Positions 4,664 to 29,156 of a stretch of 34,823 nucleotides of DNA are shown here, one piece after another. The notes below the pieces were generated by a model, which saw only the letters and a list, made by a program, of their open reading frames with translations, was not told where the DNA came from and made no database searches. Every line of letters begins with the position of its first letter. Position 1 is the stretch's first letter. This DNA is from a virus, in UHGV virus genome UHGV-0362719, one strand, 5' to 3'. The position numbers and the translations under genes were made by a program.

Positions 4664-6923
4664 AGCCTCCGGGCGTTTTGTCCCTCCGTCAGCATTTGCC
4701 GCAGGCACCGGTGAGACGTTTACCGGTGCTTATGCATGGAACGCGCCACGCGAGGCCGTCGGGCGCGAAAGACCCCTTACACGTGACGAGATGCGTCAGG
4801 TGCAAGGTGTTTTATCCACGATTAATCGCCTGCCTTACTTTTTGCGCTCGCTGTTTACTTCACGCTATGACTACATCCGGCGCAATAAAAGCCCGGTGCA
4901 CGGGTTTTATTTCCTCACATCCACTTTTCAGCGTCGTTTATGGCCGCGCATTGAGCGTGTGAATCAGCGCCATGAAATGAACACCGACGCGTCGATGCTG
5001 TTTCTGGCTGAGCGTGACCACTATGCGCGCCTGCCGGGAATGAATGACAAGGAGCTGAAAAAGTTTGCCGCCCGTATCTCATCGCAGCTTTTCATGATGT
5101 ATGAGGAACTCAGCGATGCCTGGGTGGATGCGCATGGCGAAAAAGAATCGCTGTTTACGGATGAGGCGCAGGCTCACCTCTATGGTCATGTTGCTGGCGC
5201 TGCACGTGCTTTCAATATTTCCCCTCTCTACTGGAAAAAATACCGTAAAGGACAGATGACCACGAGGCAGGCATATTCTGCCATTGCCCGTCTGTTTAAC
5301 GATGAGTGGTGGATTAGTCAGCTTAAAGGCCAGCGTATGCGCTGGCATGAGGCGTTACTGATTGCTGTCGGGGAGGTCAATAAAGACCGTTCTCCTTATG
5401 CCAGTAAACATGCCATTCGTGATGTGCGTGCACGCCGCCAGGCAAATCTGGAATTTCTTAAATCGTGTGATCTCGAAAACAGGGAAACAGGCGAGCGCAT
5501 CGACCTTATCAGTAAGGTGATGGGCAGTATTTCTAATCCTGAAATTCGCCGGATGGAGCTGATGAACACCATTGCCGGTATTGAGCGTTACGCCGCCGCA
5601 GAAGGTGATGTGGGGATGTTTATCACGCTGACCGCGCCGTCAAAGTATCACCCGACACGTCAGGTTGGAAAAGGCGAAAGTAAAACCGTCCAGCTAAATC
5701 ACGGCTGGAACGATGAGGCATTTAATCCAAAGGATGCGCAGCGTTATCTCTGCCGTATCTGGAGCCTGATGCGCACGGCATTCAAGGATAATGATTTACA
5801 GGTCTACGGTTTGCGAGTCGTCGAGCCACACCACGACGGAACGCCGCACTGGCATATGATGCTTTTTTGTAATCCACGCCAGCGTAACCAGATTATCGAA
5901 ATCATGCGTCGCTACGCGCTCAAAGAGGATGGCGACGAAAGAGGAGCTGCGCGAAACCGTTTTCAGGCAAAACATCTTAATCGGGGCGGTGCTGCGGGGT
6001 ATATCGCGAAATACATCTCAAAAAATATCGACGGCTATGCACTGGATGGGCAGCTCGATAACGATACCGGCAGACCGCTGAAAGATACTGCCGCGGCTGT
6101 TACCGCATGGGCGTCAACGTGGCGCATTCCGCAATTTAAAACGGTTGGCCTGCCGACAATGGGGGCTTACCGTGAACTACGCAAATTGCCTCGCGGCGTC
6201 AGCATTGCTGATGAGTTTGACGAGCGCGTCGAGGCTGCACGCGCCGCCGCAGACAGTGGTGATTTTGCGCTGTATATCAGCGCGCAGGGTGGGGCAAATG
6301 TCCCGCGCGATTGTCAGACTGTCAGGGTCGCCCGTAGTCCGTCGGATGAAGTTAACGAGTACGAGGAAGAAGTCGAGAGAGTGGTCGGCATTTACGCGCC
6401 GCATCTCGGCGCGCGTCATATTCATATCACCAGAACGACGGACTGGCGCATTGTTCCGAAAGTGCCGGTCGTTGAGCCTTTGACTTTAAAAAGCGGCATC
6501 GCCGCGCCTCGGAGTCCTGTCAATAACTGTGGAAAGCTCACCGGTGGTGATACTTCGTTACCGGCTCCCACACCTTCTGAACACGCCGCAGCAGTGCTTA
6601 ATCTGGTTGATGACGGTGTTATCGAATGGAATGACACGGAGGTCGTGAGGGCGCTCAGGGGGGCATTAAAACACGACCTGAGAACACCAAATCGTCAGCA
6701 AAGAAACGGAAGCCCGTTAAAACCACATGAAATTGCACCATCGGCCCGACTGACCCGGTCGGAACGAATGCAAATCACCCGTATCCGCGTTGACCTTGCC
6801 CAGAACGGTATCAGGCCGCAGCGATGGGAGCTTGAGGTGCTGGCGCGTGGCGCGACCGTAAATTATGACGGGAAAAAATTCACGTATCCGGTCACTGATG
6901 AGTGGCCGGGGTTTGTGGATTAA
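4650..6923 (+). CDS. A: Rolling-circle replication initiator / nickase A
   Basis: Track ORF 4611-6923 (770 aa); I prefer the start MAVKASGRF at about 4650, giving about 757 aa (P2 A about 761 aa). Largest early gene, directly after the orf80-83 block. Start codon uncertain. Confidence 0.85.
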   Translation, partial: HMAVKASGRFVPPSAFAAGTGETFTGAYAWNAPREAVGRERPLTRDEMRQVQGVLSTINRLPYFLRSLFTSRYDYIRRNKSPVHGFYFLTSTFQRRLWPRIERVNQRHEMNTDASMLFLAERDHYARLPGMNDKELKKFAARISSQLFMMYEELSDAWVDAHGEKESLFTDEAQAHLYGHVAGAARAFNISPLYWKKYRKGQMTTRQAYSAIARLFNDEWWISQLKGQRMRWHEALLIAVGEVNKDRSPYASKHAIRDVRARRQANLEFLKSCDLENRETGERIDLISKVMGSISNPEIRRMELMNTIAGIERYAAAEGDVGMFITLTAPSKYHPTRQVGKGESKTVQLNHGWNDEAFNPKDAQRYLCRIWSLMRTAFKDNDLQVYGLRVVEPHHDGTPHWHMMLFCNPRQRNQIIEIMRRYALKEDGDERGAARNRFQAKHLNRGGAAGYIAKYISKNIDGYALDGQLDNDTGRPLKDTAAAVTAWASTWRIPQFKTVGLPTMGAYRELRKLPRGVSIADEFDERVEAARAAADSGDFALYISAQGGANVPRDCQTVRVARSPSDEVNEYEEEVERVVGIYAPHLGARHIHITRTTDWRIVPKVPVVEPLTLKSGIAAPRSPVNNCGKLTGGDTSLPAPTPSEHAAAVLNLVDDGVIEWNDTEVVRALRGALKHDLRTPNRQQRNGSPLKPHEIAPSARLTRSERMQITRIRVDLAQNGIRPQRWELEVLARGATVNYDGKKFTYPVTDEWPGFVD

Positions 6924-6968
6924 ACTTATTGATAAATAATGTGTCAAGATAACGCCAGGTAATTATAT

Positions 6969-7406
6969 ATGGTAAGAGTTTGCATTGATAAGAAAGGGAA
7001 TGTTATCACCGATATCTCTTTGGGAGTCGGGGATTTTGAAGATTGTTGTAGCGTAGCAGAGGAGAAGTATAATCAGGCACTTTGCAGTAATTTTGTGAGT
7101 GTGGTGGCAGTGGTGAATGACGATAATGAGAAAATAGGTTTTTGTTCATTCATCATTGAATCTACAGAGGACGCTGTAATATATCAAATCGATTATGTTT
7201 GGGTTAAGCAAAGTGAGCGGGGACAAGGGTTATCAAAATTAATGATTCCTTATGTGGCTCAAGAGCTTATTTCTATTTATAAAGACTTGCTTGGAAAGTA
7301 TTCATTTGGTGATATATGTCTTTGTGATAATTCTGTTTATATATCGGATGGAGGGGCTGTTTTTGGTCGAGGGGTAAAGGGATTCACCTTTAATGTAATT
7401 AAGTAA
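6969..7406 (+). CDS. Cargo ORF, GNAT-like acetyltransferase candidate
   Basis: 145 aa, low GC. Segment VWVKQSERGQGLSKLMI resembles the GNAT motif-A acetyl-CoA loop (R-G-x-G-h-g). Weak, by-eye call. Confidence 0.4.
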   Translation: MVRVCIDKKGNVITDISLGVGDFEDCCSVAEEKYNQALCSNFVSVVAVVNDDNEKIGFCSFIIESTEDAVIYQIDYVWVKQSERGQGLSKLMIPYVAQELISIYKDLLGKYSFGDICLCDNSVYISDGGAVFGRGVKGFTFNVIK

Positions 7407-7462
7407 TTCCGGGTGAAATGAAAAAGATATCTCAATGTTTGAGATGGAACAAATTTAAGAAA

Positions 7463-7500
7463 CTCCGCCGGTGCTGAAACTTGCTTTCAGTGCTGGCGGA
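7463..7500. terminator. Bidirectional hairpin between convergent cargo ORFs
   Basis: Seen: about 15-bp imperfect stem (CCGCCGGTGCTGAAA / TTTCAGTGCTGGCGG, three G-U wobbles) with loop CTTGC, lying between the stops of 6969-7406 (+) and 7515-7946 (-). Confidence 0.5.
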
Positions 7501-7514
7501 GGTGAAGTAAGGCG

Positions 7515-7946
7515 TTAGCTAGTTATCAGATTGACACCGAGGGTAAGCAGGTTTGTTACTGCACCGGCAATAACACCAGGTGTCCCGTCCTTCACTGCGC
7601 TGATAATCTTATCTCCCATCGTTTCATTACCGCCAAGTGCTTCGGGTTTTTTGTTGAGCACCGCGAGTGCTTTCTCGGTCAGTCGCACATCATGAAAACC
7701 GGTCTGATGGTCTGTTCCGTACAGAATATAGCCGTTTTCGCTTAAGAAAGTGAATGTGCCATCAACCACACTACGCAACTGATTCAGTGCTTTCATTTCT
7801 GGTGAGTTAAGTTGGTCAAAGTAGTCATCAGGTAACGCGGCGTTAAATTTTTTGTAGGTGATGACTTGTGGTACAGGAAAGTTATCCCATAGCACCGCAA
7901 AGATTTCTGCCGTCTGTTGGTTGAATAATTCGAGATTTTTGGACAT
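7515..7946 (-). CDS. Cargo hypothetical protein (143 aa), unknown function
   Basis: Track ORF with AAGGGA RBS about 8 nt upstream of ATG; hydrophobic Gly/Ala-rich C-terminal tail (GTPGVIAGAVTNLLTLGVNLI). No recognisable family. Confidence 0.55.
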   Translation of the reverse strand: MSKNLELFNQQTAEIFAVLWDNFPVPQVITYKKFNAALPDDYFDQLNSPEMKALNQLRSVVDGTFTFLSENGYILYGTDHQTGFHDVRLTEKALAVLNKKPEALGGNETMGDKIISAVKDGTPGVIAGAVTNLLTLGVNLITS

Positions 7947-8450
7947 GCATAGTTCCCTTTCATCAATTAAAGACCCTTATGCCGACTGGGCAAAGAGGCT
8001 AACTGTAATGGCCTCAAATAACGACCTGAGCTCACGCGAGGTGGACAGTTACACTGAAAAAATGGTTGAACAAGCCAGTAAAGATGAGCTTATGGTCGTT
8101 ATAAAATACCTGTTAAATCACATCAGAATGAGTAAATAAAATGATCTATATCAAGATGTTATCTCACATTTATGAAAGTCCGTGGACAACGATTTTTCTG
8201 CTAATTGTTGTCAGTACGTGCCTCAACAGTGTGATTGGTGCATTGCGCGGCCAGTGACAACTATAAAAATTGATCAGAACCGGCACCATGAATGCCGGTT
8301 TTTTTGTGCTTTTTCTGTGATATCCCCGTTTTTATCTGTGCATGGTTTTGCATGTGCCGGAGTTACATGTTCTGGCTGTGCGTCCGCCAGGACTGGCGTG
8401 GCTCAAAAGCGGTATTGCAACTGCATTAAAACCGCCCCATGAAGCGGGCG

Positions 8451-8469
8451 GGCGAGGCGGGGAAAGCAC
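8451..8469. promoter_or_regulatory. cos: Putative cos site (19-nt cohesive end GGCGAGGCGGGGAAAGCAC)
   Basis: Seen: exact 19-mer GGCGAGGCGGGGAAAGCAC at 8451-8469 with flanking dyad symmetry (CCGCCC...GGGCGG). Matches my recollection of the P2/P4 cohesive-end sequence, which I cannot verify here. Confidence 0.5.
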
Positions 8470-8575
8470 CGCGCGTAAGATAAACAGAAGAGCGAAGGAT
8501 TATGGTTGAGTATTTGTGTTTTTGTACATATGATAAAAAGGTGTTTACGCTTAAAAACACATCAAAGGAGATGAT

Positions 8576-9877
8576 ATGGAAAATATAAAGATTGATAAGT
8601 TTCTCACTATTCAAAAAGTTGATATTCCTCTTAAGAAAGTGAATATATTTATTGGGCCTCAGGCACAGGGGAAAAGTGTCATTGCAAAGCTAATAAAATA
8701 TTTTAAAGATTACCCTATGGATATACTACGAGCTTCAACAGAGGGTAAAACTAAAAGAGATATATTGAAGGAGCAAAAGAATAAGTTTAGTAAAATTTTC
8801 CCTCAGCAGTATTGGGCTGATGATGAGTTTTTTATTGAGTATAGTAATAAGCACTATTGGGTGCGGATTACTAATCGAAAAGATAGCAAAGGGTCATTGA
8901 AAATAACCCTTTCTGAGAATTTAACGAAGACGATTGCTAAACTTCGTTTGATTGTACGAAAGGATTTAGATGAAAATATTGAGAATTCACTTGCAGAAAG
9001 CGTTACGAGAAGACGTAAACGCGGAATTGAACATGAATTGCGAGTATGTCTTTCTCTAGGATTGTTTTCAGAACCAGAAACAAAGCTTGAAAGTGTTTTT
9101 TATATCCCCGCAGGGCGCTCTTTTTTTGCTAACTTGCAAAAAAATGTGTTTTCATTTTTATCCAGTAGTATAGAAATTGACTACTTTTTGACAGAGTTTG
9201 GTTCTCTGTATGAACAAACAAAAAAATTATTTAGCCAAGATTACATGATTAGGATGCTTAGGGGGGCTGTGCCTCAACATGTTAATAAGCTTGTGGAGGA
9301 GTTGATTTGCGGAAAATATATAACAGAAAAGGGTGAGGATTTTATTCGTCATGCTGCTAAAAAGACGAATCTTAACAACTCGAGCTCAGGGCAGCAAGAA
9401 GCGTTACCAATGGCTTTAATGTTATCCTCATGGCCGTATTTACAGTCTATGACTAGTAAGAGTTTTATTATTGAGGAGCCGGAGGCTCATCTGTTTCCTT
9501 CTGCCCAAGCAAAAGTTGTATCTTTAATAGCCTCAGCGTATAACCAAGCAGAAAGCTATTGTAGCTATACAATAACAACACATAGCCCATATATTCTAAG
9601 TGCCTTCAATAATTTGATTCAAGCAGGTAATGCATTGAAGTGTATTAAGGGCAAGAATAATGCCGATATCGAACGCTTATATAAGCTTGTTCCAGAGTCT
9701 CAAATTATTGATTTTGATGATGTGACAGCTTATATGGTTAATGCTGGGAAAGTGACGGAAATACTGGATTCCGAACTAAATATATTAGATGCGAATGAAA
9801 TAGATAGGATTTCCTCTATTTTTTCAGAGACTTTTGATGCATTGATTGATATCGAATATTCGGCTACTGTGAATTAG
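8576..9877 (+). CDS. ABC-type (OLD/SMC/RecF-like AAA_15/AAA_21-type) ATPase, candidate defence protein
   Basis: 433 aa, strong AAGGAG RBS. Seen motifs: Walker A GPQAQGKS; signature-like SSGQQ; Walker B/D-loop FIIEEPEAHLFP; H-loop TTHSP. No TOPRIM-like C-terminal domain evident. Very low GC relative to the backbone. Confidence 0.8.
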   Translation: MENIKIDKFLTIQKVDIPLKKVNIFIGPQAQGKSVIAKLIKYFKDYPMDILRASTEGKTKRDILKEQKNKFSKIFPQQYWADDEFFIEYSNKHYWVRITNRKDSKGSLKITLSENLTKTIAKLRLIVRKDLDENIENSLAESVTRRRKRGIEHELRVCLSLGLFSEPETKLESVFYIPAGRSFFANLQKNVFSFLSSSIEIDYFLTEFGSLYEQTKKLFSQDYMIRMLRGAVPQHVNKLVEELICGKYITEKGEDFIRHAAKKTNLNNSSSGQQEALPMALMLSSWPYLQSMTSKSFIIEEPEAHLFPSAQAKVVSLIASAYNQAESYCSYTITTHSPYILSAFNNLIQAGNALKCIKGKNNADIERLYKLVPESQIIDFDDVTAYMVNAGKVTEILDSELNILDANEIDRISSIFSETFDALIDIEYSATVN

Positions 9878-9885
9878 GTGATTGA

Positions 9886-10323
9886 ATGTGTAAAAATTGC
9901 AAAGGAAAAACAAAAAATAAAATCATTGTGCTATCTGATAAAGGAACGTCAACGCAATTGTCAGTCATAAATGATAATGAGTTGGAGGTTGAGCATAAGT
10001 TAATAGATGGTTGCGCTATTGTTGTTGGGGAGCGGTGTGATCATTATTTGAAGATTTATAACAATCAGGATGTTTCACATCTTTTTGTTGAACTTAAAGG
10101 AAGTGATGTTGAAAAAGCTGTTAAACAGATAGTGACAACTTTAAAGTCAGGTGTGATTAATGTAGGTGCTAAAGAAAAAAAACATGGTGCTATTGTTAGC
10201 ACTAGGAATCCGCTAAACTCAACAGAAACCAATAAGTTAAAGAAGAAAATTCTTTTGAGTGACGGAGTGAATTTGCATTTCTATAAAATGAAGGCGCAGC
10301 AAAAAATAACTTCTTTTACATGA
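9886..10323 (+). CDS. Small partner protein of the ABC ATPase (145 aa), possible nuclease-like effector
   Basis: Starts 9 bp after the ATPase stop, same strand (operon). N-terminal CKNCKGK (CxxC); possible D...ExK arrangement (ERCDHY ... LFVELKG). Nuclease assignment is inference only. Confidence 0.6.
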   Translation: MCKNCKGKTKNKIIVLSDKGTSTQLSVINDNELEVEHKLIDGCAIVVGERCDHYLKIYNNQDVSHLFVELKGSDVEKAVKQIVTTLKSGVINVGAKEKKHGAIVSTRNPLNSTETNKLKKKILLSDGVNLHFYKMKAQQKITSFT

Positions 10324-10336
10324 AGTGTTCTCTTGT

Positions 10337-10360
10337 ACAGGCATGCATTTGCATGCCTGT
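10337..10360 (+). terminator. Palindromic hairpin after the ATPase cassette
   Basis: Seen: ACAGGCATGCA-TT-TGCATGCCTGT near-perfect palindrome 14 bp after the 10323 stop, followed by a weak T-rich stretch. Confidence 0.4.
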
Positions 10361-10426
10361 CGTGTAATCTTTTACACTATATTTGTGTTGGTTCTAATCT
10401 TGTTATGTGTTTGTTTCGGTGATGGA

Positions 10427-11446
10427 TCATAATGAATAAGTTCGAAAGCGAAATACATCTTCGCCAACCCAACAGTTAATTTCTTTACATCGCTCTTGGA
10501 GGAACGTTAGCTCGTTGCGTACAAAGACTTGTGCTGCTTTTGTTACATCTCCAAATCCTCCTGTGTTGTTGGGCATCATTCCTATCATTTGGGGAGGCAC
10601 GCGATGAGCACTCATTAGATCTTCAGCACTTGCTTTTTTGATATTAAAAAAATCGTCCTTCGTTGCCACTTCACTGAGCGGGATAATTTTAATGCCGTCG
10701 GCTTTCCCCTGCGGGGCATAGAGAAACAGATTTTTAAAGTTATTGCGGCCTTTCGACTTAACCATGTTTTCGCGAAGCATTTCGATATCGTTGCGATCCT
10801 GCACGGCATCGGTGACGTACATGATGTATCCGGCATGTGCGCCATTTTCGTAATACTTGCGGCGGAACAGCGTGGCTGATTCATTCAGCCAGGCAGAGTT
10901 AAGGGCGCTGAGATACTCCGGCAGGCCGTACAGCTCCTGATTAATATCCGGCTCCAGCAGGTGAAACACGGAGCCGGGCGCGAAAGGTGTCGGCTCGTTG
11001 AAGGACGGCACCCACCAGTAAACATCCTCCTCCACGCCACGGCGGGTATATTTTGCCGGTGAGGTTTCCAGTCTGATGACCTTACCGGTGGTGCTGTAAC
11101 GCTTTTCCAGAAACGCATTACCGAATACCAGAAAATCCAGCACAAAGCGGCTGAAATCCTGCTGAGAAAGCCACGGGTGTGGGATAAACGTTGAGGCCAG
11201 AATGTTACGTTTGACGTAAATCGGTGAGCTGTGATGCACGGCAGCACGCAGGCTTTTTGCCAGACCGGTAAAGCTGACTGGTGGCTCATACCATCTGCCG
11301 TTACTGATGCACTCGACGTAATCCAGAATGTCACGGCGGTCGAGTACCGGCACCGGCTCACCAAAGGTGAATGCCTCCATTTTCGGGGCGCTGGCGGTCA
11401 TTTTTTTTGCCGCAGGTTGCGGTGTTTTCCCTTTTTTCTTGCTCAT
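10427..11446 (-). CDS. Q: Portal protein Q
   Basis: 339 aa (P2 Q about 344 aa), leftward, immediately downstream of P with overlapping stop/start; synteny. Confidence 0.9.
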   Translation of the reverse strand: MSKKKGKTPQPAAKKMTASAPKMEAFTFGEPVPVLDRRDILDYVECISNGRWYEPPVSFTGLAKSLRAAVHHSSPIYVKRNILASTFIPHPWLSQQDFSRFVLDFLVFGNAFLEKRYSTTGKVIRLETSPAKYTRRGVEEDVYWWVPSFNEPTPFAPGSVFHLLEPDINQELYGLPEYLSALNSAWLNESATLFRRKYYENGAHAGYIMYVTDAVQDRNDIEMLRENMVKSKGRNNFKNLFLYAPQGKADGIKIIPLSEVATKDDFFNIKKASAEDLMSAHRVPPQMIGMMPNNTGGFGDVTKAAQVFVRNELTFLQERCKEINCWVGEDVFRFRTYSL

Positions 11447-18717: not shown

Positions 18718-19147
18718 TGCCGTCACGGTGCTGAAAACTAACCCCGATATGCTGCGGATATTCGTGGATAACGGGAGTATTGCCTCCACACTGGCGAGGT
18801 CGCTGTCATTTGAAAAGCGTTACACGCTCAATGTCATTGTGACCGACTTTACCGGTGATTTTGACCTGCTCATCGTGCCGGTGCTGGCGTGGCTGCGGGA
18901 AAATCAGCCCGACATCATGACCACCGACGCAGGCCAGAAAAAGGGCTTCACGTTTTATGCGGACATCAACAATGACAGCAGCTTTGATATCAGTATCAGC
19001 CTGATGCTGACCGAGCGCACGCTGGTCAGTGAGGTGGACGGCGCGCTGCATGTGAAGAATATCCCGGAACCTCCGCCGCCGGAGCCGGTCACCCGCCCGA
19101 TGGAGCTGTATATCAATGGCGAACTGGTGAGCAAGTGGGATGAATGA
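18680..19147 (+). CDS. R: Tail completion protein R
   Basis: 155 aa (same as P2 R); synteny. Confidence 0.85.
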   Translation: MLKPDSLRRALTDAVTVLKTNPDMLRIFVDNGSIASTLARSLSFEKRYTLNVIVTDFTGDFDLLIVPVLAWLRENQPDIMTTDAGQKKGFTFYADINNDSSFDISISLMLTERTLVSEVDGALHVKNIPEPPPPEPVTRPMELYINGELVSKWDE

Positions 19148-19592
19148 GTTTAAGCGTTTTGAAGACCGGCTGACCGGACTGATTGAATCGCTGTCACCGT
19201 CAGGGCGTCGGCGACTGAGTGCCGAACTGGCGAAACGCCTGCGGCAGAGTCAGCAGCGTCGGGTGATGGCACAGAAAACTCCGGACGGCACACCCTACGC
19301 GCCACGCCAGCAGCAGAGCGCCAGAAAAAAGACCGGTCGTGTTAAGCGAAAAATGTTTGCGAAACTTATCACCAGTCGTTTTTTGCATATCCGCGCCAGC
19401 CCGGAACAGGCATCAATGGAGTTTTACGGCGGGAAGTCACCGAAAATCGCCAGTGTGCATCAGTTCGGTCTGTCGGAAGAAAACCGGAAAGACGGTAAGA
19501 AAATTGATTATCCGGCGCGTCCTCTGCTCGGCTTTACCGGTGAGGATGTGCAGATGATTGAAGAGATTATCCTGGCTCACCTTGAGCGTTAG
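19140..19592 (+). CDS. S: Tail completion protein S
   Basis: 150 aa (same as P2 S); synteny. Confidence 0.85.
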   Translation: MNEFKRFEDRLTGLIESLSPSGRRRLSAELAKRLRQSQQRRVMAQKTPDGTPYAPRQQQSARKKTGRVKRKMFAKLITSRFLHIRASPEQASMEFYGGKSPKIASVHQFGLSEENRKDGKKIDYPARPLLGFTGEDVQMIEEIILAHLER

Positions 19593-19626
19593 TTTTATCC
19601 AGGCAGAGGCTGATGCGCAATTAAGC

Positions 19627-19653
19627 ATTGAGCGGCCGTGCTGGTCGCTCAAT
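19627..19653. terminator. Inverted repeat between S (+) and the convergent cargo ORF (-)
   Basis: Seen: ATTGAGCGGCC / GGTCGCTCAAT stem with short loop; no clear T-tract, so terminator function is uncertain. Confidence 0.35.
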
Positions 19654-19663
19654 ATTTAGAGGT

Positions 19664-20449
19664 TTATGAGTGGTTTTTATTTGATGCTTTGTATTCTAAA
19701 ACCTTCTTATTGGCGTAAAGGAATTTTGTATATGACAGGAATATAAGCAGACCTGAAATGAAATAGGTTAGGGACATTATTAATAATGTTTTTCTGTAGC
19801 TGTTATTATCTTTAATCTCCTGACTTAACCATTCGGAGTCCTCCTTGTTTAGCTGTAAGAGCTTATTGCAGGCGATCTCGGGAAGTGTGTCTTTTATAAA
19901 TACGTTTTGCAGACTCTTGCAATCGGCAAGGCTATAAGTTTTATTAAATTCAACCGTTTTATTTTTGAAGGATAAAAGAACTTTGTCACTATAAACATAG
20001 TACATCATATTTTTATATGGTATACCTATGGCATCCCTTACTATAGCGGATTGTTCATTGTGTATATAACATGCGAAGAGAATATAAATAATACTGGCCA
20101 GAATTACAATTGTTGTTTTAATTATGTGTGGTGGTTTTGTTATGTCACCCCAGAAGCGAGTAAGGAAAAAATACGATGTTTTTAGTTTTCCATCAATCAG
20201 CCCCTGCTGTATCATTCTCACATCTTCGATGCCTGATACATTGATTCCGTTAATTATTTTAAATAGTTGAATGTCGCGCCATTTTTTGTCGAGCATTTTT
20301 AACTTTCTGTCTGAATACTCAAGATTGAAATGATGTGCAATAAACCTCATAAGATTACTTTTACCAAAGGTAACAAATGTTAATGCTATTAATAAAAATA
20401 GATACAAAGAGATAAACCACCACGCATTAGTCACATTATCACTGAACAT
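19664..20449 (-). CDS. Cargo multi-pass membrane protein (261 aa) at the S-V junction (P2 orf30 position)
   Basis: Track ORF on the opposite strand to the late operons; very AT-rich; hydrophobic helices seen (WWFISLYLFLLIALTFVTF, TIVILASIIYILFACYIH, LLIMSLTYFISGLLIFL). Confidence 0.6.
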   Translation of the reverse strand: MFSDNVTNAWWFISLYLFLLIALTFVTFGKSNLMRFIAHHFNLEYSDRKLKMLDKKWRDIQLFKIINGINVSGIEDVRMIQQGLIDGKLKTSYFFLTRFWGDITKPPHIIKTTIVILASIIYILFACYIHNEQSAIVRDAIGIPYKNMMYYVYSDKVLLSFKNKTVEFNKTYSLADCKSLQNVFIKDTLPEIACNKLLQLNKEDSEWLSQEIKDNNSYRKTLLIMSLTYFISGLLIFLSYTKFLYANKKVLEYKASNKNHS

Positions 20450-20532
20450 TACGCTCTCCTCGAATGTTGTATGGTCGTTCTACAAATGAATCCAGATAGC
20501 ATAACTTTTATATATTGTGCAATCTCACACGC

Positions 20533-21168
20533 ATGAACACTCTCGCAAATATTCAGGAACTCGCGCGCGCACTGCGCAACATGATCCGCACCGGCATTAT
20601 CGTCGAAACCGACCTTAATGCCGGTCGCTGCCGTGTGCAGACCGGCGGCATGTGCACCGACTGGCTTCAGTGGCTGACCCATCGCGCCGGGCGTTCGCGC
20701 ACATGGTGGGCACCTTCCGTGGGGGAACAGGTGCTGATTCTGGCCGTGGGTGGTGAACTCGACACGGCGTTCGTTCTGCCGGGGATTTATTCCGGCGATA
20801 ACCCCGCGCCGTCTGCGTCGGCGGATGCCCTGCATATCCGTTTCCCTGACGGGGCGGTGATTGAGTATGAACCTGAAACCAGCGCGCTCACGGTAAGCGG
20901 AGTTAAAACGGCCAGCGTGACGGCTTCTGATTCTGTTACTGCCACGGTGCCGGTGGTCATGGTGAAAGCATCAACCCGCATCACCCTGGACACACCGGAG
21001 GTGGTCTGCACCAACAGGCTGATTACCGGCACGCTGGAAGTGCAGAAGGGCGGGACGATGCGCGGCAACATTGAACACACCGGCGGTGAACTCTCATCAA
21101 ACGGTAAGGTACTGCATACCCATAAACACCCCGGCGACAGCGGCGGCACAACCGGGAGCCCTCTATGA
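20533..21168 (+). CDS. V: Baseplate spike protein V
   Basis: Track ORF 20515-21168; start MNTLANIQ gives 211 aa (same as P2 V); first gene of the V-W-J-I-H-G block. Confidence 0.85.
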   Translation: MNTLANIQELARALRNMIRTGIIVETDLNAGRCRVQTGGMCTDWLQWLTHRAGRSRTWWAPSVGEQVLILAVGGELDTAFVLPGIYSGDNPAPSASADALHIRFPDGAVIEYEPETSALTVSGVKTASVTASDSVTATVPVVMVKASTRITLDTPEVVCTNRLITGTLEVQKGGTMRGNIEHTGGELSSNGKVLHTHKHPGDSGGTTGSPL

Positions 21169-22958: not shown

Positions 22959-25277
22959 ATGAGCACAAAATTCAAAACCGTTATCACCACTGCCGGTGCA
23001 GCAAAGCTGGCAGCGGCAACCGCGCCGGGAGGGCGGAAGGTCAACATTACCACGATGGCCGTCGGGGATGGCGGTGGTAAATTGCCTGTCCCGGATGCCG
23101 GACAGACCGGGCTTATCCACGAAGTCTGGCGACATGCGCTGAACAAAATCAGCCAGGACAAACGAAACAGTAATTATATTATCGCAGAGCTGGTTATTCC
23201 GCCGGAGGTGGGCGGTTTCTGGATGCGTGAGCTTGGCCTGTACGATGATGCGGGAACGTTAATTGCTGTGGCGAACATGGCCGAAAGTTATAAGCCAGCT
23301 CTTGCCGAAGGCTCAGGGCGTTCGCAGACCTGCCGCATGGTCATCATCGTCAGCAGTGTGGCCTCAGTGGCGCTGACCATTGACACCACAACGGTGATGG
23401 CGACGCAGGATTACGTTGATGACAAAATTGCAGAACATGAACAGTCACGACGTCACCCGGACGCCTCGCTGACCGCAAAAGGTTTTACTCAGTTAAGCAG
23501 TGCGACTAACAGCACGTCTGAAACACTGGCTGCAACGCCAAAGGCGGTAAAGGCCGCATATGACCTTGCTAACGGGAAATATACCGCACAGGACGCCACC
23601 ACAGCACGAAAAGGCCTTGTCCAGCTCAGTAGTGCCACCAACAGCACGTCTGAAACGCTCGCCGCAACACCAAAAGCGGTAAAAGCAGCATATGACCTTG
23701 CTAACGGGAAATATACCGCACAGGACGCCACCACAGCGCGAAAAGGCCTTGTTCAGCTCAGTAGCGCCACCAACAGCGATTCTGAAACGCTGGCCGCAAC
23801 GCCAAAGGCGGTAAAGGTCGCGTATGACCTTGCTAACGGGAAATACACTGCACAGGATGCCACCACCGCGCGAAAAGGTCTTGTCCAGCTCAGTAGCGCC
23901 ACCAACAGTGATTCTGAAACACTGGCCGCAACACCAAAAGCGGTGAAGTCTGCCTATGACAATGCTGAAAAACGTCTTCAGAAAGATCAGAATGGTGCGG
24001 ATATTCCGGGAAAGGATACCTTCACGAAAAATATCGGTGCCTGTCGTGCTTATAGCGGCGCTTTGAGCACTGAAGCCGGAAACTGGACAACCGCTCAGTT
24101 TATTGAATGGCTGGATTCCCGTGGTGCATTTAATCATCCGTACTGGATGTGCAAAGGCTCCTGGTCATATGCAAATAACAAAATCATTACGGATACCGGA
24201 TGTGGTGATATCCACCTGGCTGGTTGTGTCGTCGAGGTCATGGGAACAAAATCTGCAATCACTATTCGAGTGACCACGCCGACAACATCAAGCGGTGGCG
24301 GTACAACCAGCGCGCAATTCACTTACATTAATCATGGGGACGGCTACTCCCCCGGCTGGCGTCGTGACTGGAATCGTCAGGGCGACGCAATGACCGGAAC
24401 GATTAATCAGGATGGCGGAAGCCAGAATGCCTATATGTCTACGGCCTTATGTTCAGGCACCAGAGGCGGCAAAAAATATCTCAGAAAGTTTCGTGGTGGA
24501 GAAGGAGACACTATCTGGCATGAAACAGTGCAGGGCGGGGTAATTCGCTGGGCGACAGGAAACTATGACGCTCAGGAAGAATTATCACTCAGCTCCGCTT
24601 ATGGTCTCCGTTCTAGAGGTGAAATTACATCACTCAGTGCTAATGGTCTGCGCATTGCTTATGGCAATTATGGATTCTTTATCAGGAATGATGGTGGCAG
24701 CACATATTTAATGCTGACGGCCTCTGGTGATAAATTTGGGACATGGAACGGTTTAAGGCCGCTGACTATCAATAACGCTAATGGCGGAGTGTCAATGGGG
24801 CATGGCCTGAGTGTTACTGGTGATATTGCCTCAAGTACCAAAGTACGTGCCGGTAGCGGGAAAAAGTTCACGGTCAGCAGCAGCAATACATCCACGAAGG
24901 AAGCCGCATTCAATTTGTGGGGAAACTCAAGTCGTCCTGTGGTGGCTGAATTAGGTGATGATGCAGGCTGGCATTTTTACAGTCAGAGAAATACAGATAA
25001 CAGCATCACTTTTGCTGTTAACGGGCAGGTATCACCATCTAACTATAGTAATTTTGATTCACGCTATGTCCGGGATATCCGGCTTGGTGGTGCTGCCACA
25101 TACAAACCTGCGAACAATGGCATGACATGGACACATCAGGCACCGTCCGGGTGTGTATATTCCGGCATTATTGTTCAGGATACCGGCTCAAACTCTGCCG
25201 ATAACATTGGTGGCGTATATTACAGACCGGTTCAGAAATACATTAACGGGACATGGTACAACGTGGCGCAGGTATAA
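22959..25277 (+). CDS. H: Tail fibre protein H (extended, repeat-containing, mosaic C-terminus)
   Basis: 772 aa; N-terminal about 170 aa is the conserved P2 H baseplate-attachment region (MSTKFKTVITTAGAAKLAAATAPGG...); central 44-aa tandem repeats; Gly/Ser-rich C-terminal half. P2 H is about 669 aa by recollection. Confidence 0.9.
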   Translation: MSTKFKTVITTAGAAKLAAATAPGGRKVNITTMAVGDGGGKLPVPDAGQTGLIHEVWRHALNKISQDKRNSNYIIAELVIPPEVGGFWMRELGLYDDAGTLIAVANMAESYKPALAEGSGRSQTCRMVIIVSSVASVALTIDTTTVMATQDYVDDKIAEHEQSRRHPDASLTAKGFTQLSSATNSTSETLAATPKAVKAAYDLANGKYTAQDATTARKGLVQLSSATNSTSETLAATPKAVKAAYDLANGKYTAQDATTARKGLVQLSSATNSDSETLAATPKAVKVAYDLANGKYTAQDATTARKGLVQLSSATNSDSETLAATPKAVKSAYDNAEKRLQKDQNGADIPGKDTFTKNIGACRAYSGALSTEAGNWTTAQFIEWLDSRGAFNHPYWMCKGSWSYANNKIITDTGCGDIHLAGCVVEVMGTKSAITIRVTTPTTSSGGGTTSAQFTYINHGDGYSPGWRRDWNRQGDAMTGTINQDGGSQNAYMSTALCSGTRGGKKYLRKFRGGEGDTIWHETVQGGVIRWATGNYDAQEELSLSSAYGLRSRGEITSLSANGLRIAYGNYGFFIRNDGGSTYLMLTASGDKFGTWNGLRPLTINNANGGVSMGHGLSVTGDIASSTKVRAGSGKKFTVSSSNTSTKEAAFNLWGNSSRPVVAELGDDAGWHFYSQRNTDNSITFAVNGQVSPSNYSNFDSRYVRDIRLGGAATYKPANNGMTWTHQAPSGCVYSGIIVQDTGSNSADNIGGVYYRPVQKYINGTWYNVAQV
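23478..23960 (+). repeat. Tandem 132-bp (44-aa) repeats, about 3.6 copies, inside tail fibre gene H
   Basis: Seen in the translation: KG(F/L)(T/V)QLSSATNS(T/D)SETLAATPKAVKAAYDLANGKYTAQDATTAR repeated 3 times plus a partial 4th. Minus-strand track ORFs 23489-23734 and 23493-24137 show the same periodicity. Confidence 0.85.
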
Positions 25278-25280
25278 TTT

Positions 25281-25808
25281 ATGCAGCATTTGATAAATAT
25301 AACGGCAGGTAATCCAAAAACGGTTGAACAATATCAATTGACAAAGGACTTTGATGTTGTCTGGTTTTTTACAGAAGATGGTAAGAACTGGTACGAAGAA
25401 CAAAAGTATTTTGCTGATGACACGATAAAAATAGCGTACGACAAAGATAATATTATCCGCTATGTAGAAAAGGATGTGACAGCTATCAGACCGGATGGAT
25501 TAAGTGTTGTTGAAGTGCCGGATATTACTGCTAACCGACGGGCGGACATTTCAGGGAACTGGATGTTTAAGGACGGCAAAGTGATTAAACGCATTTATAC
25601 GGCAGAGGAATTACAACAGCAGGCAGAAATTCGGAAAGCCAGACTTCTTGCAGATGCTGAATCCGTGATTTTGCCGCTGGAGCGCGCTGTCAGGCTGAAT
25701 ATGGCAACAGAGGAGGAGCGCACACGGCTGGAGGCTTGGGAACGCTACAGCGTTTTGGTCAGTCGTGTGGATCCTGCAAATCCTGAATGGCCGGAAATGC
25801 CGCAATAA
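25281..25808 (+). CDS. G: Tail fibre assembly chaperone G
   Basis: 175 aa (same as P2 G), immediately after H. Confidence 0.8.
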
Positions 25809-25983
25809 GTTGTATAAGCTCTGGTGTGAGATTACATATCTATGGCACAGAGTAAAGCCTAATCTGGCAGTCCGCTCTGTGCCATTACCGGACATACTGA
25901 GCAGAAGGCTAAAAAGGACGCTTTCAGGACATATAGCAAGGGAGCAAAGATGAAAGAATTAACCCAGTAATGATAGTTTCTGA

Positions 25984-26010
25984 ATTAAAGGGGGCTACCC
26001 ACCCCCTTTA
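25984..26010. terminator. Strong GC hairpin after the stop of the leftward cargo ORF
   Basis: Seen: TTAAAGGGGG-CTACCCA-CCCCCTTTAA (10-bp stem, 7-nt loop) with A/T-rich flanks, 2 bp from the stop of ORF 26012-26290 (-). Confidence 0.55.
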
Positions 26011-26011
26011 A

Positions 26012-26290
26012 TTACTTGTTCCACTCAGTCAGAATTTGGTTACTAACTTCATCTGAGAGATTGTACCAATAAGCTGAGTTATTGGTTGCGTCTACAACAA
26101 TAAGCTTATCATCACTATCCATGACCGCCCTCACAATTTTGGCTGCATCCTCGGCAGAGTAACTACAGTTAACATACCAGTTCGATTCAGTTGTTAAAGC
26201 CCAATTTCCTAAAGATTTAATTGCATCATACACAGCCGCATAATCTTTCGTTTTAATGAGGTCGTAAGTAATAAATAAATTATTAGCCAT
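26012..26290 (-). CDS. Cargo hypothetical protein (92 aa) at the G-FI (Z/fun) position
   Basis: Track ORF, AT-rich, opposite strand to the tail operons, followed by a hairpin terminator; no recognisable motif. Confidence 0.5.
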   Translation of the reverse strand: MANNLFITYDLIKTKDYAAVYDAIKSLGNWALTTESNWYVNCSYSAEDAAKIVRAVMDSDDKLIVVDATNNSAYWYNLSDEVSNQILTEWNK

Positions 26291-26342
26291 AAATCATCTC
26301 CCAAAGGACAAAGAAAAAAGCGCCTAGAAAGGCGCTCATATA

Positions 26343-26561
26343 TTAATGGTCTTTAAGCCATGCCTGTACTTTCTTAGCCGAATGACCTACAGCCTGTACG
26401 GCTTGAACAAGTTTGGCCTCGCTAACTCCAAACTTTTCAGCCCAATCACGTCTCTCGTAATCCTGTTTGATACTTATTAAATCATTGTCAGGGGTACCGA
26501 TTTTGGTCTTATCATCAGCCATTTTACTGATTCCTCGTGATACAGGCTTATACCTGCCCAT
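26343..26561 (-). CDS. Cargo small protein, DUF3606-like (by-eye resemblance)
   Basis: Track ORF (72 aa; alternative start MADDKTKIG gives about 59 aa). Segment DWAEKFGVSEAKLVQAVQAVGHSAKKVQAWL resembles DUF3606-family small proteins from memory. Confidence 0.45.
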   Translation of the reverse strand: MGRYKPVSRGISKMADDKTKIGTPDNDLISIKQDYERRDWAEKFGVSEAKLVQAVQAVGHSAKKVQAWLKDH

Positions 26562-27013
26562 TAGTTATATGGCTCCCGTGCTGCTTCGTAAACGTTCAAT
26601 AATCAAACAATTGACACTGATCATAAAACCAGTTAGAGGATTTGACTCTAGCTTGGATATATGATGATGCCACCCCCTTTATATTGTTGTCGGTAACTCA
26701 CAGACATTGAACTCATGCTGGTGAGTGAAAGGCTACATAAACGCCCAACATTTAAACTGCCCTCAGCAGCGTTTGCGGAGCAATATACAGGCTTCGTATT
26801 CAATCCTTGCCCTACGAGAAACCCTAGCCGTTGCCTCGTTTTCAAGTGTCAGGAAGTTCTTTGTCAGACCTCATACAGTCTTGGGCTGGGTGAGGTGCAT
26901 GGGGGAAGTAGAAGCCTTAACTGTTGAGGTAAATCGAACCATAAGTGTGCAATTTTTCAAGCCCGGCGCTATTTTAGTATTGAAAACAATTAGTACGCCC
27001 CCAAGGACAACTC

Positions 27014-27706
27014 ATGATCGAATTTATCGCAGAGCATATAAACACAGTAAGTACACTTATCTCCGCTTTGGCAGCATTGCTAACAGCAGTTGCTACATTT
27101 TTCTTGTGGAGAGTAACAAGGCTATTAGCAGACGAGACAAAAAGGATGGTTGACGCATCAGTTCAACCTCATGTCGTTGTGACTCTTGAACCAAATTCTT
27201 GGGCTGCTTTTTATTTTGATATCAATATTGCTAATACCGGAAATGCCCCAGCCTATGATATTGAAGTCGAATTTAATCCCCCACTGGTTAATGCAGAACA
27301 TAGAAAAAATAAAGGTATACCATTTAGCAAGGTTAGCGTATTGAAAAACGGTCATTCCCTCAACAGCAGTCTTTGTAAGTATGACCAGATTAAAGATCAA
27401 GTTTATTCTGTTAGTATTAGCTGGTCTAAACAGCCGGGCTCAACTGAAAGAGAGCGGAATGAGTATTCTTATGATATGGCTTCTTTCGAGGGGGTTAGCT
27501 ACTTAGGTGCAAGGAGTCCAATGACACAGATAGCTGAGCAGATGAAAAAGATTAGAGAAGACTGGAGGCCGATTTCCCAGGGAAGCAAAAAAATTAAAAC
27601 AGACAACTATAATTCAAGTGACAGAGCAGAGGAACAACGAGCACGTGAAGAGTGGTATCAGACCACTGTAAAGAAATGGGATAAAGAAAGGCCAAAAGAT
27701 AACTAA
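27014..27706 (+). CDS. Cargo membrane-anchored protein (230 aa) at the Z/fun position, candidate defence or exclusion protein
   Basis: Track ORF; N-terminal TM helix (VSTLISALAALLTAVATFFLW) followed by a soluble domain with a charged Lys/Glu/Arg-rich C-terminus; AT-rich; followed by terminator 27841-27870. Confidence 0.6.
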   Translation: MIEFIAEHINTVSTLISALAALLTAVATFFLWRVTRLLADETKRMVDASVQPHVVVTLEPNSWAAFYFDINIANTGNAPAYDIEVEFNPPLVNAEHRKNKGIPFSKVSVLKNGHSLNSSLCKYDQIKDQVYSVSISWSKQPGSTERERNEYSYDMASFEGVSYLGARSPMTQIAEQMKKIREDWRPISQGSKKIKTDNYNSSDRAEEQRAREEWYQTTVKKWDKERPKDN

Positions 27707-27840
27707 TACAATTGACCTGCTCCCCATAAATTAGCATACCACAATCTCAGGTTCCTCTTCGCTCAAAACAGGCTGTCAGATTTGATAGCGTTTTGGCTAT
27801 GTAAATTGTCAGTCGGAAAATGAGTGTGTACAAATCAGGA

Positions 27841-27870
27841 CAGGCGGGCAGATTGCCCGCCTTTTCTTTA
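27841..27870 (+). terminator. Rho-independent terminator downstream of the 230-aa cargo gene
   Basis: Seen: AGGCGGGCA-GAT-TGCCCGCCT perfect 9-bp stem followed by TTTTCTTT. Confidence 0.6.
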
Positions 27871-27965
27871 TCTGTTGTTTCATCCACTGACCAGCCAGGT
27901 CAAATAGCGTCTCATGTACTACCCAACGGAAAATAGTTGCACCCATTAACCACGGAGTTAAACGG

Positions 27966-29156
27966 ATGAGTGACTATCATCACGGCGTGCAGGTGCTGGA
28001 GATTAACGACGGCACCCGCGTCATTTCCACCGTATCCACGGCCATTGTCGGCATGGTCTGCACGGCCAGCGATGCGGATGCGGAAACCTTCCCCATCAAT
28101 AAACCGGTGCTGATTACCAATGTGCAGAGCGCAATTGCAAAGGCCGGTAAAAAAGGCACGCTGGCGGCATCGTTGCAGGCCATCGCCGACCAGTCAAAAC
28201 CGGTCACCGTTGTCGTGCGCGTGGAAGACGGCACCGGCGATGACGAAGAAACGAAACTCGCGCAGACCGTTTCCAATATCATCGGCACCACCGACGAAAA
28301 CGGTCAGTACACCGGACTGAAAGCCCTGCTGGCGGCGGAGTCGGTAACCGGTGTTAAACCGCGTATTCTCGGTGTGCCGGGACTGGATACCAAAGAGGTG
28401 GCTGTTGCACTGGCATCCGTCTGTCAGAAGCTGCGCGCTTTCGGATATATCAGCGCATGGGGCTGTAAGACTATTTCCGAGGTGAAAGCCTACCGCCAGA
28501 ATTTCAGCCAGCGTGAGCTGATGGTCATCTGGCCGGATTTCCTCGCATGGGATACGGTCAGCAGCACCACCGCCACCGCGTATGCCACCGCCCGTGCGTT
28601 GGGTCTGCGCGCTAAAATCGACCAGGAGCAGGGCTGGCATAAAACGCTGTCCAATGTCGGGGTAAACGGTGTTACCGGCATCAGCGCCTCTGTATTCTGG
28701 GATTTGCAGGAGTCCGGCACCGATGCTGACCTGTTGAACGAGTCAGGTGTCACAACGCTGATTCGCCGTGACGGTTTCCGCTTCTGGGGTAACCGTACCT
28801 GCTCTGATGACCCACTGTTCCTCTTTGAAAACTACACCCGCACCGCGCAGGTGCTGGCCGACACGATGGCTGAGGCGCACATGTGGGCGGTGGATAAGCC
28901 CATCACCGCAACGCTGATTCGCGACATCGTTGACGGCATCAATGCCAAATTCCGTGAGCTGAAAACAAACGGCTATATCGTGGATGCGACCTGCTGGTTC
29001 AGCGAAGAATCCAACGATGCGGAAACCCTCAAGGCCGGAAAACTGTATATCGACTATGACTATACCCCGGTGCCTCCTCTCGAAAACCTGACCCTGCGCC
29101 AGCGTATTACTGATAAATATCTGGCAAATCTGGTCACCTCGGTTAACAGCAATTAA
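27966..29156 (+). CDS. FI: Tail sheath protein FI
   Basis: 396 aa (same as P2 FI); synteny FI-FII-E-T-U-D. Confidence 0.95.
   Translation: MSDYHHGVQVLEINDGTRVISTVSTAIVGMVCTASDADAETFPINKPVLITNVQSAIAKAGKKGTLAASLQAIADQSKPVTVVVRVEDGTGDDEETKLAQTVSNIIGTTDENGQYTGLKALLAAESVTGVKPRILGVPGLDTKEVAVALASVCQKLRAFGYISAWGCKTISEVKAYRQNFSQRELMVIWPDFLAWDTVSSTTATAYATARALGLRAKIDQEQGWHKTLSNVGVNGVTGISASVFWDLQESGTDADLLNESGVTTLIRRDGFRFWGNRTCSDDPLFLFENYTRTAQVLADTMAEAHMWAVDKPITATLIRDIVDGINAKFRELKTNGYIVDATCWFSEESNDAETLKAGKLYIDYDYTPVPPLENLTLRQRITDKYLANLVTSVNSN

Follow-up and report, generated by a model that had tools for sequence, protein, structure and literature searches.

We examined an open reading frame (ORF) in the virus genome UHGV-0362719. 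Throughout, "the window" refers to the whole stretch of this DNA analysed, which is 34,823 nucleotides long. The ORF occupies positions 19664 to 20449 of the minus strand, starts with ATG, and encodes 261 amino acids. On the left, it is convergent with gene S (19140 to 19592, plus strand), an ORF encoding a tail completion protein of 150 amino acids and collinear with gpS of bacteriophage P2. On the right, it is divergent from gene V (20533 to 21168, plus strand), encoding the baseplate spike, for which the ATG at 20533 is also the P2 V start. An earlier note, made from the letters of this DNA, had described such a leftward gene, antisense between S and V, and had stressed its AT-richness. Both descriptions were accurate. 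Guanine plus cytosine (GC) content drops from 0.55-0.62 in the flanking late genes to 0.32-0.34 within the gene. Overall, the ORF has a GC content of 32.7%, compared with 55-62% in the flanking late genes and a mean of 50.5% across the window. At third codon positions (GC3) the value is 36%.

The same note saw no recognisable similarity for the encoded protein. This was wrong. The protein is P2 Orf30 (record AF063097; protein AAD03281.1), which it matches by tblastn with 83.9% amino acid identity, over 100% of its length and at collinear coordinates. Indeed, the surrounding 5 kb are base-for-base collinear with P2, and features of AF063097 transfer at a constant offset. The two genes share the 261-amino-acid length, the strand, the AT-rich composition, and the placement relative to S, the terminator, the Ogr site, and V. 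In addition, phrog_2407, a family of unknown function, matches the window protein from end to end (1-261 of 261, E 9.2e-141). Based on the PHROG match, the identity to P2 Orf30, and collinearity with P2, we are almost certain that the window ORF is an allele of P2 orf30, a dispensable AT-rich accessory gene. It differs from P2 Orf30 in being an allelic variant from another 90%-identity cluster. There are 74 nucleotide differences between the window allele and the P2 reference, with a nonsynonymous divergence (dN) of 0.083. The window allele is in the larger cluster (964 member sequences) and the P2 reference type is in a separate cluster, P0002.

The gene is common and has been seen before. 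A tblastn search of 50,697 phage records with the window protein returned 21 records, all of P2-type phages infecting Escherichia and Yersinia, and including a 100% match in OU784549. The identical protein occurs on at least 1000 public contigs, where it is always named "hypothetical protein". In published work, orf30 is a 786-bp ORF with no assigned function, inserted between S and V, and its site is one of three P2 regions thought to carry horizontally acquired genes (PMC2771037, PMC3091744, PMC6823313). The P2 record (AF063097) labels orf30 "nonessential". Hence, neither the gene nor its site is new. Annotation of orf30 in P2 goes back to the 1990s, the window carries one of its common alleles, and the variability of the site has been described before.

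Exchange of the S-V junction

The orf30 gene is carried as a module, with the terminator of the late O operon on one side and the V promoter, which depends on Ogr, on the other. The terminator is a hairpin (19622 to 19658), with an 11-bp stem at 19627-19653, located between the convergent S and orf30 genes. By collinearity, it corresponds to the putative rho-independent terminator of the P2 O operon. The inverted repeat forming the stem is present in the centroid fold of both strands, with a z-score for the whole region of only about -1.5. The hairpin may serve both directions. At the other end, the 83-nt spacer between orf30 and V holds both the Ogr-binding site and the core of the late promoter, PV. 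The site for Ogr, an activator, was placed at 20464 to 20491 (plus strand) from the P2 annotation by collinearity, and overlaps the 5' region of orf30. A Shine-Dalgarno sequence, GAGGAG, is found 6 nt upstream of the orf30 ATG (20456 to 20461, minus strand). Similar elements (AAGGAG or GGAG) occur in most distant loci carrying a homologue, and an ACAACA/TGTTGT element is found at the equivalent PV position in distant loci. Note that no Shine-Dalgarno sequence could be recognised for V, which starts at 20533, and that, in the P2 record, transcription of the V operon begins at the V start codon. Together, these observations suggest a leaderless, or nearly leaderless, late mRNA.

The earlier note had proposed a check for presence/absence polymorphism at the S-V junction in related prophages. 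Such polymorphism is extensive. We used megablast to compare the S-orf30-V region with 5,426 complete E. coli genomes, and scored presence when the match covered at least 80% of the query. The query matched 1,583 genomes, and orf30 was present in 460 of these (29%), or about 8% of all 5,426; it is missing from the other 71% or so. In most of the matching genomes without orf30, the match is limited to S and V, and the span on the record falls 874 nt short of the query length. One locus with an empty junction, L002, has S and V genes that are 97-98% identical to those of the window, at the nucleotide level, separated by a 66-nt spacer unrelated to the cassette. Because L002 keeps S and V either side of this unrelated junction, we define the module as everything between the stop codon of S and the ATG of V (19595 to 20532). 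The limits were set by blastn breakpoints against L002 and a second locus, L003, with alternative cargo. Thus defined, the module includes the terminator of the O operon as well as the V promoter. Its edges are not marked by direct or inverted repeats, and we therefore reject insertion by transposition. Similarly, an Rfam scan of the cassette gave no match to any non-coding RNA.

Among phage isolates, the full module is present in 20 of 92 related records. The gene is missing from the other 72 and, as noted, is nonessential in P2; we found nothing to place it among the P2 genes for the virion or its assembly. A minority of E. coli junctions contain unrelated cargo. In L003, for example, a 246-amino-acid protein is encoded on the late strand, at 36% GC, and has the size and position of a 741-bp ORF (ORF16-type) in phage R18C. 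Cargo of the R18C type, and orf15 of phiCTX, resemble orf30 in encoding AT-rich hypothetical proteins in the S-V slot of P2-like phages. However, both are encoded on the strand of the late genes, and a relationship with the Orf30 family is ruled out by hhalign probabilities below 1%.

The late-promoter region of V also occurs as two unrelated sequence types (window 20450-20532, compared with L002 654-719 and L003 1412-1488). Carriers of orf30 have the AT-rich PV type. Where the junction is empty or contains other cargo, a GC-rich hairpin (GCCGCCGG...CCGGCGGC) immediately precedes the V ATG. Hence, the PV sequence type tracks the cassette type, and the late promoter is exchanged together with the cargo.

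The earlier note had presented the gene as cargo at a variable S-V site. This stands insofar as the gene is accessory, polymorphic, not part of the virion, and nonessential in P2. It fails insofar as the gene had been contrasted with P2 orf30, of which it is the orthologue. As the outcome speaking against cargo, the note had named an orthologue of P2 orf30 that is conserved across P2-like phages and has backbone-like GC content. The orthology is real, but the GC content departs from that of the backbone and many relatives lack the gene.

The Orf30 family and its predicted architecture

Homologues of Orf30 are few and divergent. When 5.8 billion proteins were searched with a word index, the only matches were four near-identical clusters and an Enterobacter protein with 40% identity. 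An exhaustive hidden Markov model search of 1.84 billion representatives returned 44 proteins at E <=1e-3. About 25 of these are full length (239-271 amino acids) and share 17-33% identity. Reciprocal tblastn searches, with three distant members, matched only P2-type orf30 in the phage collection, with E values down to 4e-11.

We noted a link to the Pfam family DUF6216 (PF19723). Nine of 28 homologues match this family, collinearly, at E <0.1. These matches are below threshold apart from that of P0032, a Sodalis protein, which alone among the 28 passes the gathering cut-off (28.9 vs 27.3 bits, model positions 10-265 of 270). The same protein matches the Orf30 profile with an E value of 5.8e-14 (positions 14-258). 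Because P0032 bridges both profiles, we consider Orf30 to be remotely related to DUF6216 without belonging to the Pfam family; the window protein itself gave no match to DUF6216 even at E <=1. The likeness extends to size (the model has 270 positions), to the full-length collinear matches, and to location, in that a P2-like prophage likewise encodes P0032 between S and V, on the antisense strand. DUF6216 differs in being an uncharacterised family to which the window protein has no match of its own. YmfE of prophage e14, considered as a DUF6216 protein, was rejected; it has no Pfam match and an hhalign probability of 0.1% against the Orf30 profile. Other Pfam, NCBIfam, and PADLOC hits of the window protein were sub-threshold noise (DUF6535, 17.9 bits; an antiporter subunit, E 0.097), and a sequence-profile search of PDB gave only chance matches to NDH chain 4.

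The earlier note had counted at least three hydrophobic helices. A Kyte-Doolittle scan, with a 19-residue window, confirmed three hydrophobic segments at approximately residues 9-28, 109-131, and 221-241. All three coincide with helices in an AlphaFold2 model, built from an alignment of 28 sequences (predicted local distance difference test score, pLDDT, 84; predicted template modelling score, pTM, 0.74). The model has helices at residues 3-40, 48-67, 74-86, 91-94, 109-134, 174-179, and 189-198, four beta-strands within residues 141-173, and one long helix at residues 202-260. The first transmembrane (TM) segment, TM1, is in the first helix (residues 9-28; 20366 to 20425, minus strand). TM2 occupies the helix at 109-134 (residues 109-131; 20057 to 20125, minus strand). 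TM3 is within the long helix (residues 221-241; 19727 to 19789, minus strand) and is followed by a basic C-terminal tail.

To orient the protein, we applied the positive-inside rule. Membrane-adjacent lysine plus arginine counts were 9.1 vs 4.5, which favours a topology with the N-terminus out, loop 1 in, loop 2 out, and the C-terminus in. The same arrangement was obtained for 28 of 28 sequences. Hence, Orf30 is predicted to be a three-pass inner membrane protein with its N-terminus outside and its C-terminus inside. In the predicted arrangement, a helical loop of about 80 residues is cytoplasmic and an alpha/beta domain of about 90 residues is periplasmic. The cytoplasmic segment (residues 29-107) is the best-conserved part of the family, with the motif D-x-Q-L-F-[KR]-x-x-N-G-I-N-V...D-A...G. 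Its conserved core, identified from the family alignment, comprises residues 48-107 (20129 to 20308, minus strand) and includes D59, Q61, G68-I-N-V, D76, and G87. The TM helices are the least conserved part. The predicted periplasmic domain (residues 132-220; 19790 to 20056, minus strand), assigned from the model, alignment, and topology, contains the four beta-strands, together with helices, and cysteines C177 and C194. Among non-redundant homologues, C194 is found in 26 of 26 and C177 in 23 of 26. Judged from the alignment, this pair would fit a periplasmic disulfide. Searching the model against PDB and BFVD with Foldseek gave no match at E <=1e-3, and so no solved or viral structural neighbour.

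Next, we measured rates of change by the Nei-Gojobori method, using seven collinear alleles (the window, P2, P24A7b, OU784750, 12474II, vB_YpM_115, and vB_YpM_46). For orf30, dN was 0.074 and synonymous divergence (dS) was 0.158, giving a dN/dS ratio of 0.47. Equivalent values (dN, dS, and dN/dS) were 0.007, 0.065, and 0.105 for R; 0.007, 0.103, and 0.071 for S; 0.013, 0.097, and 0.135 for V; 0.007, 0.071, and 0.104 for W; and 0.004, 0.107, and 0.036 for J. Thus, dN for orf30 is approximately 10-fold that of these structural backbone genes. In all pairwise comparisons of the seven orf30 alleles, dN/dS was below 1. We conclude that orf30 is under purifying selection, which rules out a chance ORF. 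Similarly, the homologues keep their length and architecture down to about 20% identity, which also shows that this is a real coding gene. Within the protein, the ratio of nonsynonymous to synonymous differences per site (pN/pS) was 1.17 for the N-terminus and TM1, the fastest-evolving segment, 0.42 for loop 1, 0.49 for TM2, 0.32 for loop 2, and 0.76 for TM3 and the tail. The fast amino acid change fits either diversifying pressure or relaxed constraint.

These measurements bear on whether the protein matters at all. The DNA could be selfish or neutral AT-rich sequence, or act only in cis, as a bidirectional terminator, as the V promoter, or as a nucleation site for H-NS that silences late genes. 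AT-rich DNA is a classical target of H-NS, no promoter was found for orf30, and dN/dS is well above that of neighbouring genes. Furthermore, because the module carries a terminator and the V promoter, a simple deletion cannot remove it. Nonetheless, we think it very improbable that the protein has little or no function. As described, dN/dS is below 1 in every pair of alleles, and the ratio is 0.20 between stand-alone chromosomal copies considered below. In the soluble domains, pN/pS is 0.32-0.42. Across 28 homologues, with identities down to about 20%, the proteins keep their length, their motifs, three TM segments, and the pair of cysteines. Finally, the Shine-Dalgarno sequence is strong and conserved, and at least 1000 contigs encode exactly this protein in intact form.

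Genomic address and candidate functions

We inspected the location of homologues in 22 P2-like loci. In 20 of these, the homologous gene is at the S-V junction, antisense, adjoining V, and has a GC content of 33-39%. The 20 loci are from E. coli (L004), IMG/VR contigs (L006-L017, n=12), a further five loci (L026-L030), an Enterobacter metagenome-assembled genome (L024), and Sodalis (L033). Relative to the window, protein identities were 56-84% for R, 64-86% for V, 62-82% for J, and 40-55% for S, and 22-37% for the junction protein. Hence, the Orf30 family is in the same slot in most P2-like Enterobacterales prophages examined, and diverges far faster than the backbone. In the remaining two loci (L036 and L037), the family gene is located beyond R, at the edge of an apparent P2-like remnant.

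Some features of these loci deserve mention in their own right. The identity of S, in all 20 carriers of distant alleles, is below that of R, V, and J. Hence, S is a mosaic or fast-diverging gene beside the slot. In two loci, a HigB/HigA toxin-antitoxin pair and an ORF6N protein are found between the family gene and S (L026, 4507-6258; L027, 6796-8436); the ORF6N-domain protein has a weak match to PADLOC PDC-S05. In L024, the additional cargo at this position is an unknown protein of 273 amino acids. In L036 (1743-3068 and 4995-5777), and likewise in L037, a related viral contig, the S-V slot holds a different, AT-rich ORF of 441 amino acids. In these loci, the family gene adjoins an apparent host acetyltransferase fragment, and its location is either a remnant or a second address of the family. 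A search of complete E. coli genomes for a P0042-type distant allele with the S-V region found no full-length copy, and context searches were without result for P0038, P0021, P0032, and P0031 in viral contigs and for P0017 in metagenome contigs.

Family members also occur outside intact phages. In two Enterobacter species, a copy of the family gene stands alone at a syntenic position, within an AT-rich islet that has no phage genes in its vicinity. The flanks are 94% identical over 12.7 kb and the surroundings include DsbD, ECF-sigma, chemoreceptor, LacI, and GH32 genes. Between the two copies, dN/dS is 0.20. A third Enterobacter copy is at a different chromosomal locus. In addition, orf30 is intact in the defective P2 remnant of AS19, a laboratory derivative of E. 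coli B (L031, 1244-4933). This remnant has no head genes; the genes between those for the portal and S are gone, portal and S survive as fused fragments, and V through H are intact. Together, the stand-alone Enterobacter copies and the intact AS19 copy argue that the protein acts alone in the cell and needs no other P2 function. Separately, the gpA-Q hotspot of the AS19 remnant holds an "ABC-three component" system and an AAA ATPase.

Logically, a gene in the late region might serve the lytic cycle. Expressed during infection, Orf30 could affect lysis timing, DNA entry or exit, or a membrane step of tail or baseplate assembly. The fixed place adjoining the V promoter, the Ogr site in the 5' region of orf30, and the co-variation of PV sequence type with cassette presence are consistent with this, as is the lack of a detectable constitutive sigma-70 promoter. 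Even so, we regard a lytic role as improbable. The gene is antisense to the late operons and nonessential in P2. It is also missing from about 71% of close E. coli prophages that are otherwise 97-98% identical in S and V. Finally, selection is purifying in phage-free chromosomal loci, and the gene is retained in a remnant devoid of head genes.

Alternatively, Orf30 could be a lysogenic-conversion factor that benefits the host in ways unrelated to phages, such as envelope stress tolerance, colonisation, or inner-membrane transport or signalling. This we judge unlikely. A resemblance of Orf30 to the CorA/Mrs2/ZntB metal-ion channels, in which an alpha/beta domain is joined to a long stalk helix that enters the membrane, is weak; identity is 4-8% and coiled-coil or generic long-helix proteins score almost as high. 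Moreover, unlike these proteins, Orf30 has no GMN, has one TM segment after the long helix, has a soluble domain predicted to be periplasmic, so that the topology is inverted, and has no Pfam CorA match. Extreme divergence at a fixed phage slot, with elevated dN, is more typical of conflict genes. In addition, the family has very few members, nearly all of them in P2-like prophages.

We favour, tentatively and at somewhat less than even chance, a role in conflict between phages. Orf30 would then be an envelope-acting lysogenic-conversion protein directed against other phages, whether by excluding superinfecting phages at the inner membrane or by an abortive response that acts on the membrane. 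The protein would act alone in the host cell envelope, independently of virion assembly, and would interfere with other phages at the inner membrane, either by blocking genome entry or by triggering the abortive response. The variable TM and periplasmic parts would face the invader, and the conserved cytoplasmic loop would contact a conserved partner. We propose this because orf30 is a nonessential, AT-rich, antisense module at an operon boundary, is polymorphic for presence and absence, and diverges rapidly at a fixed address. Further reasons are the co-residence of a toxin-antitoxin pair, the selection-backed retention without phage context, and the combination of a sensor-like periplasmic domain with a conserved loop.

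Precedents exist for proteins of this type. P22 SieA, T4 Imm, and HK97 gp15 are small, prophage- or phage-encoded, multi-pass or anchored inner-membrane exclusion proteins that act alone. The analogy is functional only, since neither sequence nor fold similarity to Orf30 was found with PHROGs, Pfam, or Foldseek searches of BFVD and PDB. Specifically, PHROGs returned only families of unknown function and Foldseek returned nothing. Within P2, the old, tin, and Z/fun genes are nonessential, AT-rich, located at operon boundaries, and variable among P2-like phages (PMC9122126, PMC3091744). In these respects orf30 is similar, and AT-rich islands also occupy both of these slots in the window. Conversely, for old, tin, and Z/fun, exclusion has been demonstrated (of lambda, T-even phages, and T5), and their slots are large and highly diverse hotspots, whereas the orf30 slot is usually empty or filled by one family.

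Several points weigh against the anti-phage role. No experiment or database links the Orf30 family to a phenotype, and no partner gene for Orf30 is present. Scans of the window protein with Pfam, NCBIfam, and PHROG identified no function-annotated family. In PADLOC-DB v2, a library no newer than 2023, the window protein matched zero families at E <=1, and the 28 homologues gave only three single-member, chance-level matches. Recent large surveys of P2 hotspots, which focus on old/tin and Z/fun, do not name orf30. The two loci with the gene beyond R depart from the fixed address, and the dN/dS ratio of 0.47 could reflect relaxed constraint instead of an arms race. Expression is a further difficulty. 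The earlier note had supposed that the prophage expresses the gene independently of the late operons, for which we found no sequence support. A consensus scan of the window for a sigma-70 promoter upstream of orf30 found none above shuffle level. The same was true of a weight-matrix scan of the 200 nt upstream of the gene in 15 loci (the window and 14 related). Given that no promoter was detected, expression in the lysogen is an assumption. At 33% GC, orf30 may also be silenced by H-NS.

The proposal can be extended to all relatives, although we consider the wider version doubtful. Orf30/DUF6216-like proteins would be an unrecognised, single-gene, exclusion or defence family, with a dedicated slot beside V across Enterobacterales P2-like phages and arms-race diversification. 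If so, the machinery by which incoming phages, perhaps other P2-like phages, enter the cell would be recognised by the variable periplasmic and TM parts, and the conserved cytoplasmic loop would deliver the block. H-NS may silence the gene until needed.

Our result re-identifies a known ORF. What the data establish is the identity of the gene, its position and polymorphism, the selection acting on it, the breadth of its family, and its persistence outside phages. The topology is a prediction, and expression in lysogens, the target, and the phenotype are inferences. P2 is a model phage, and orf30 has no function in the P2 record decades after its first description. The comparative data make orf30 a well-defined experimental target and reveal no mechanism. 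In the literature surveyed, we found no statement of the link to DUF6216, of the constancy with which very divergent alleles keep to the S-V slot, of the topology model or the selection profile, or of Enterobacter copies that stand alone. Should a role in exclusion or defence be correct, the S-V junction would be a third productive slot, beside the P2 hotspots already mined for defence systems. Likewise, a DUF family would gain a function, and orf30 would be an example of a conflict gene that keeps its address as its sequence diverges past easy recognition.

Finally, the other two AT-rich islands of the window can be described briefly. The first (6600-10800, GC 0.34-0.46) is at the gpA-Q hotspot, equivalent to old/tin. 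Its ORFs at 8576-9877 (433 amino acids) and 9886-10323 (145 amino acids) are probably defence-type cargo. In the closest phage record, the content of this island is different and includes a BspRI-type methylase. The second island (25200-28000, GC 0.40-0.49) follows the tail-fibre genes, in the Z/fun slot, and contains an ORF at 27014-27706 (230 amino acids).

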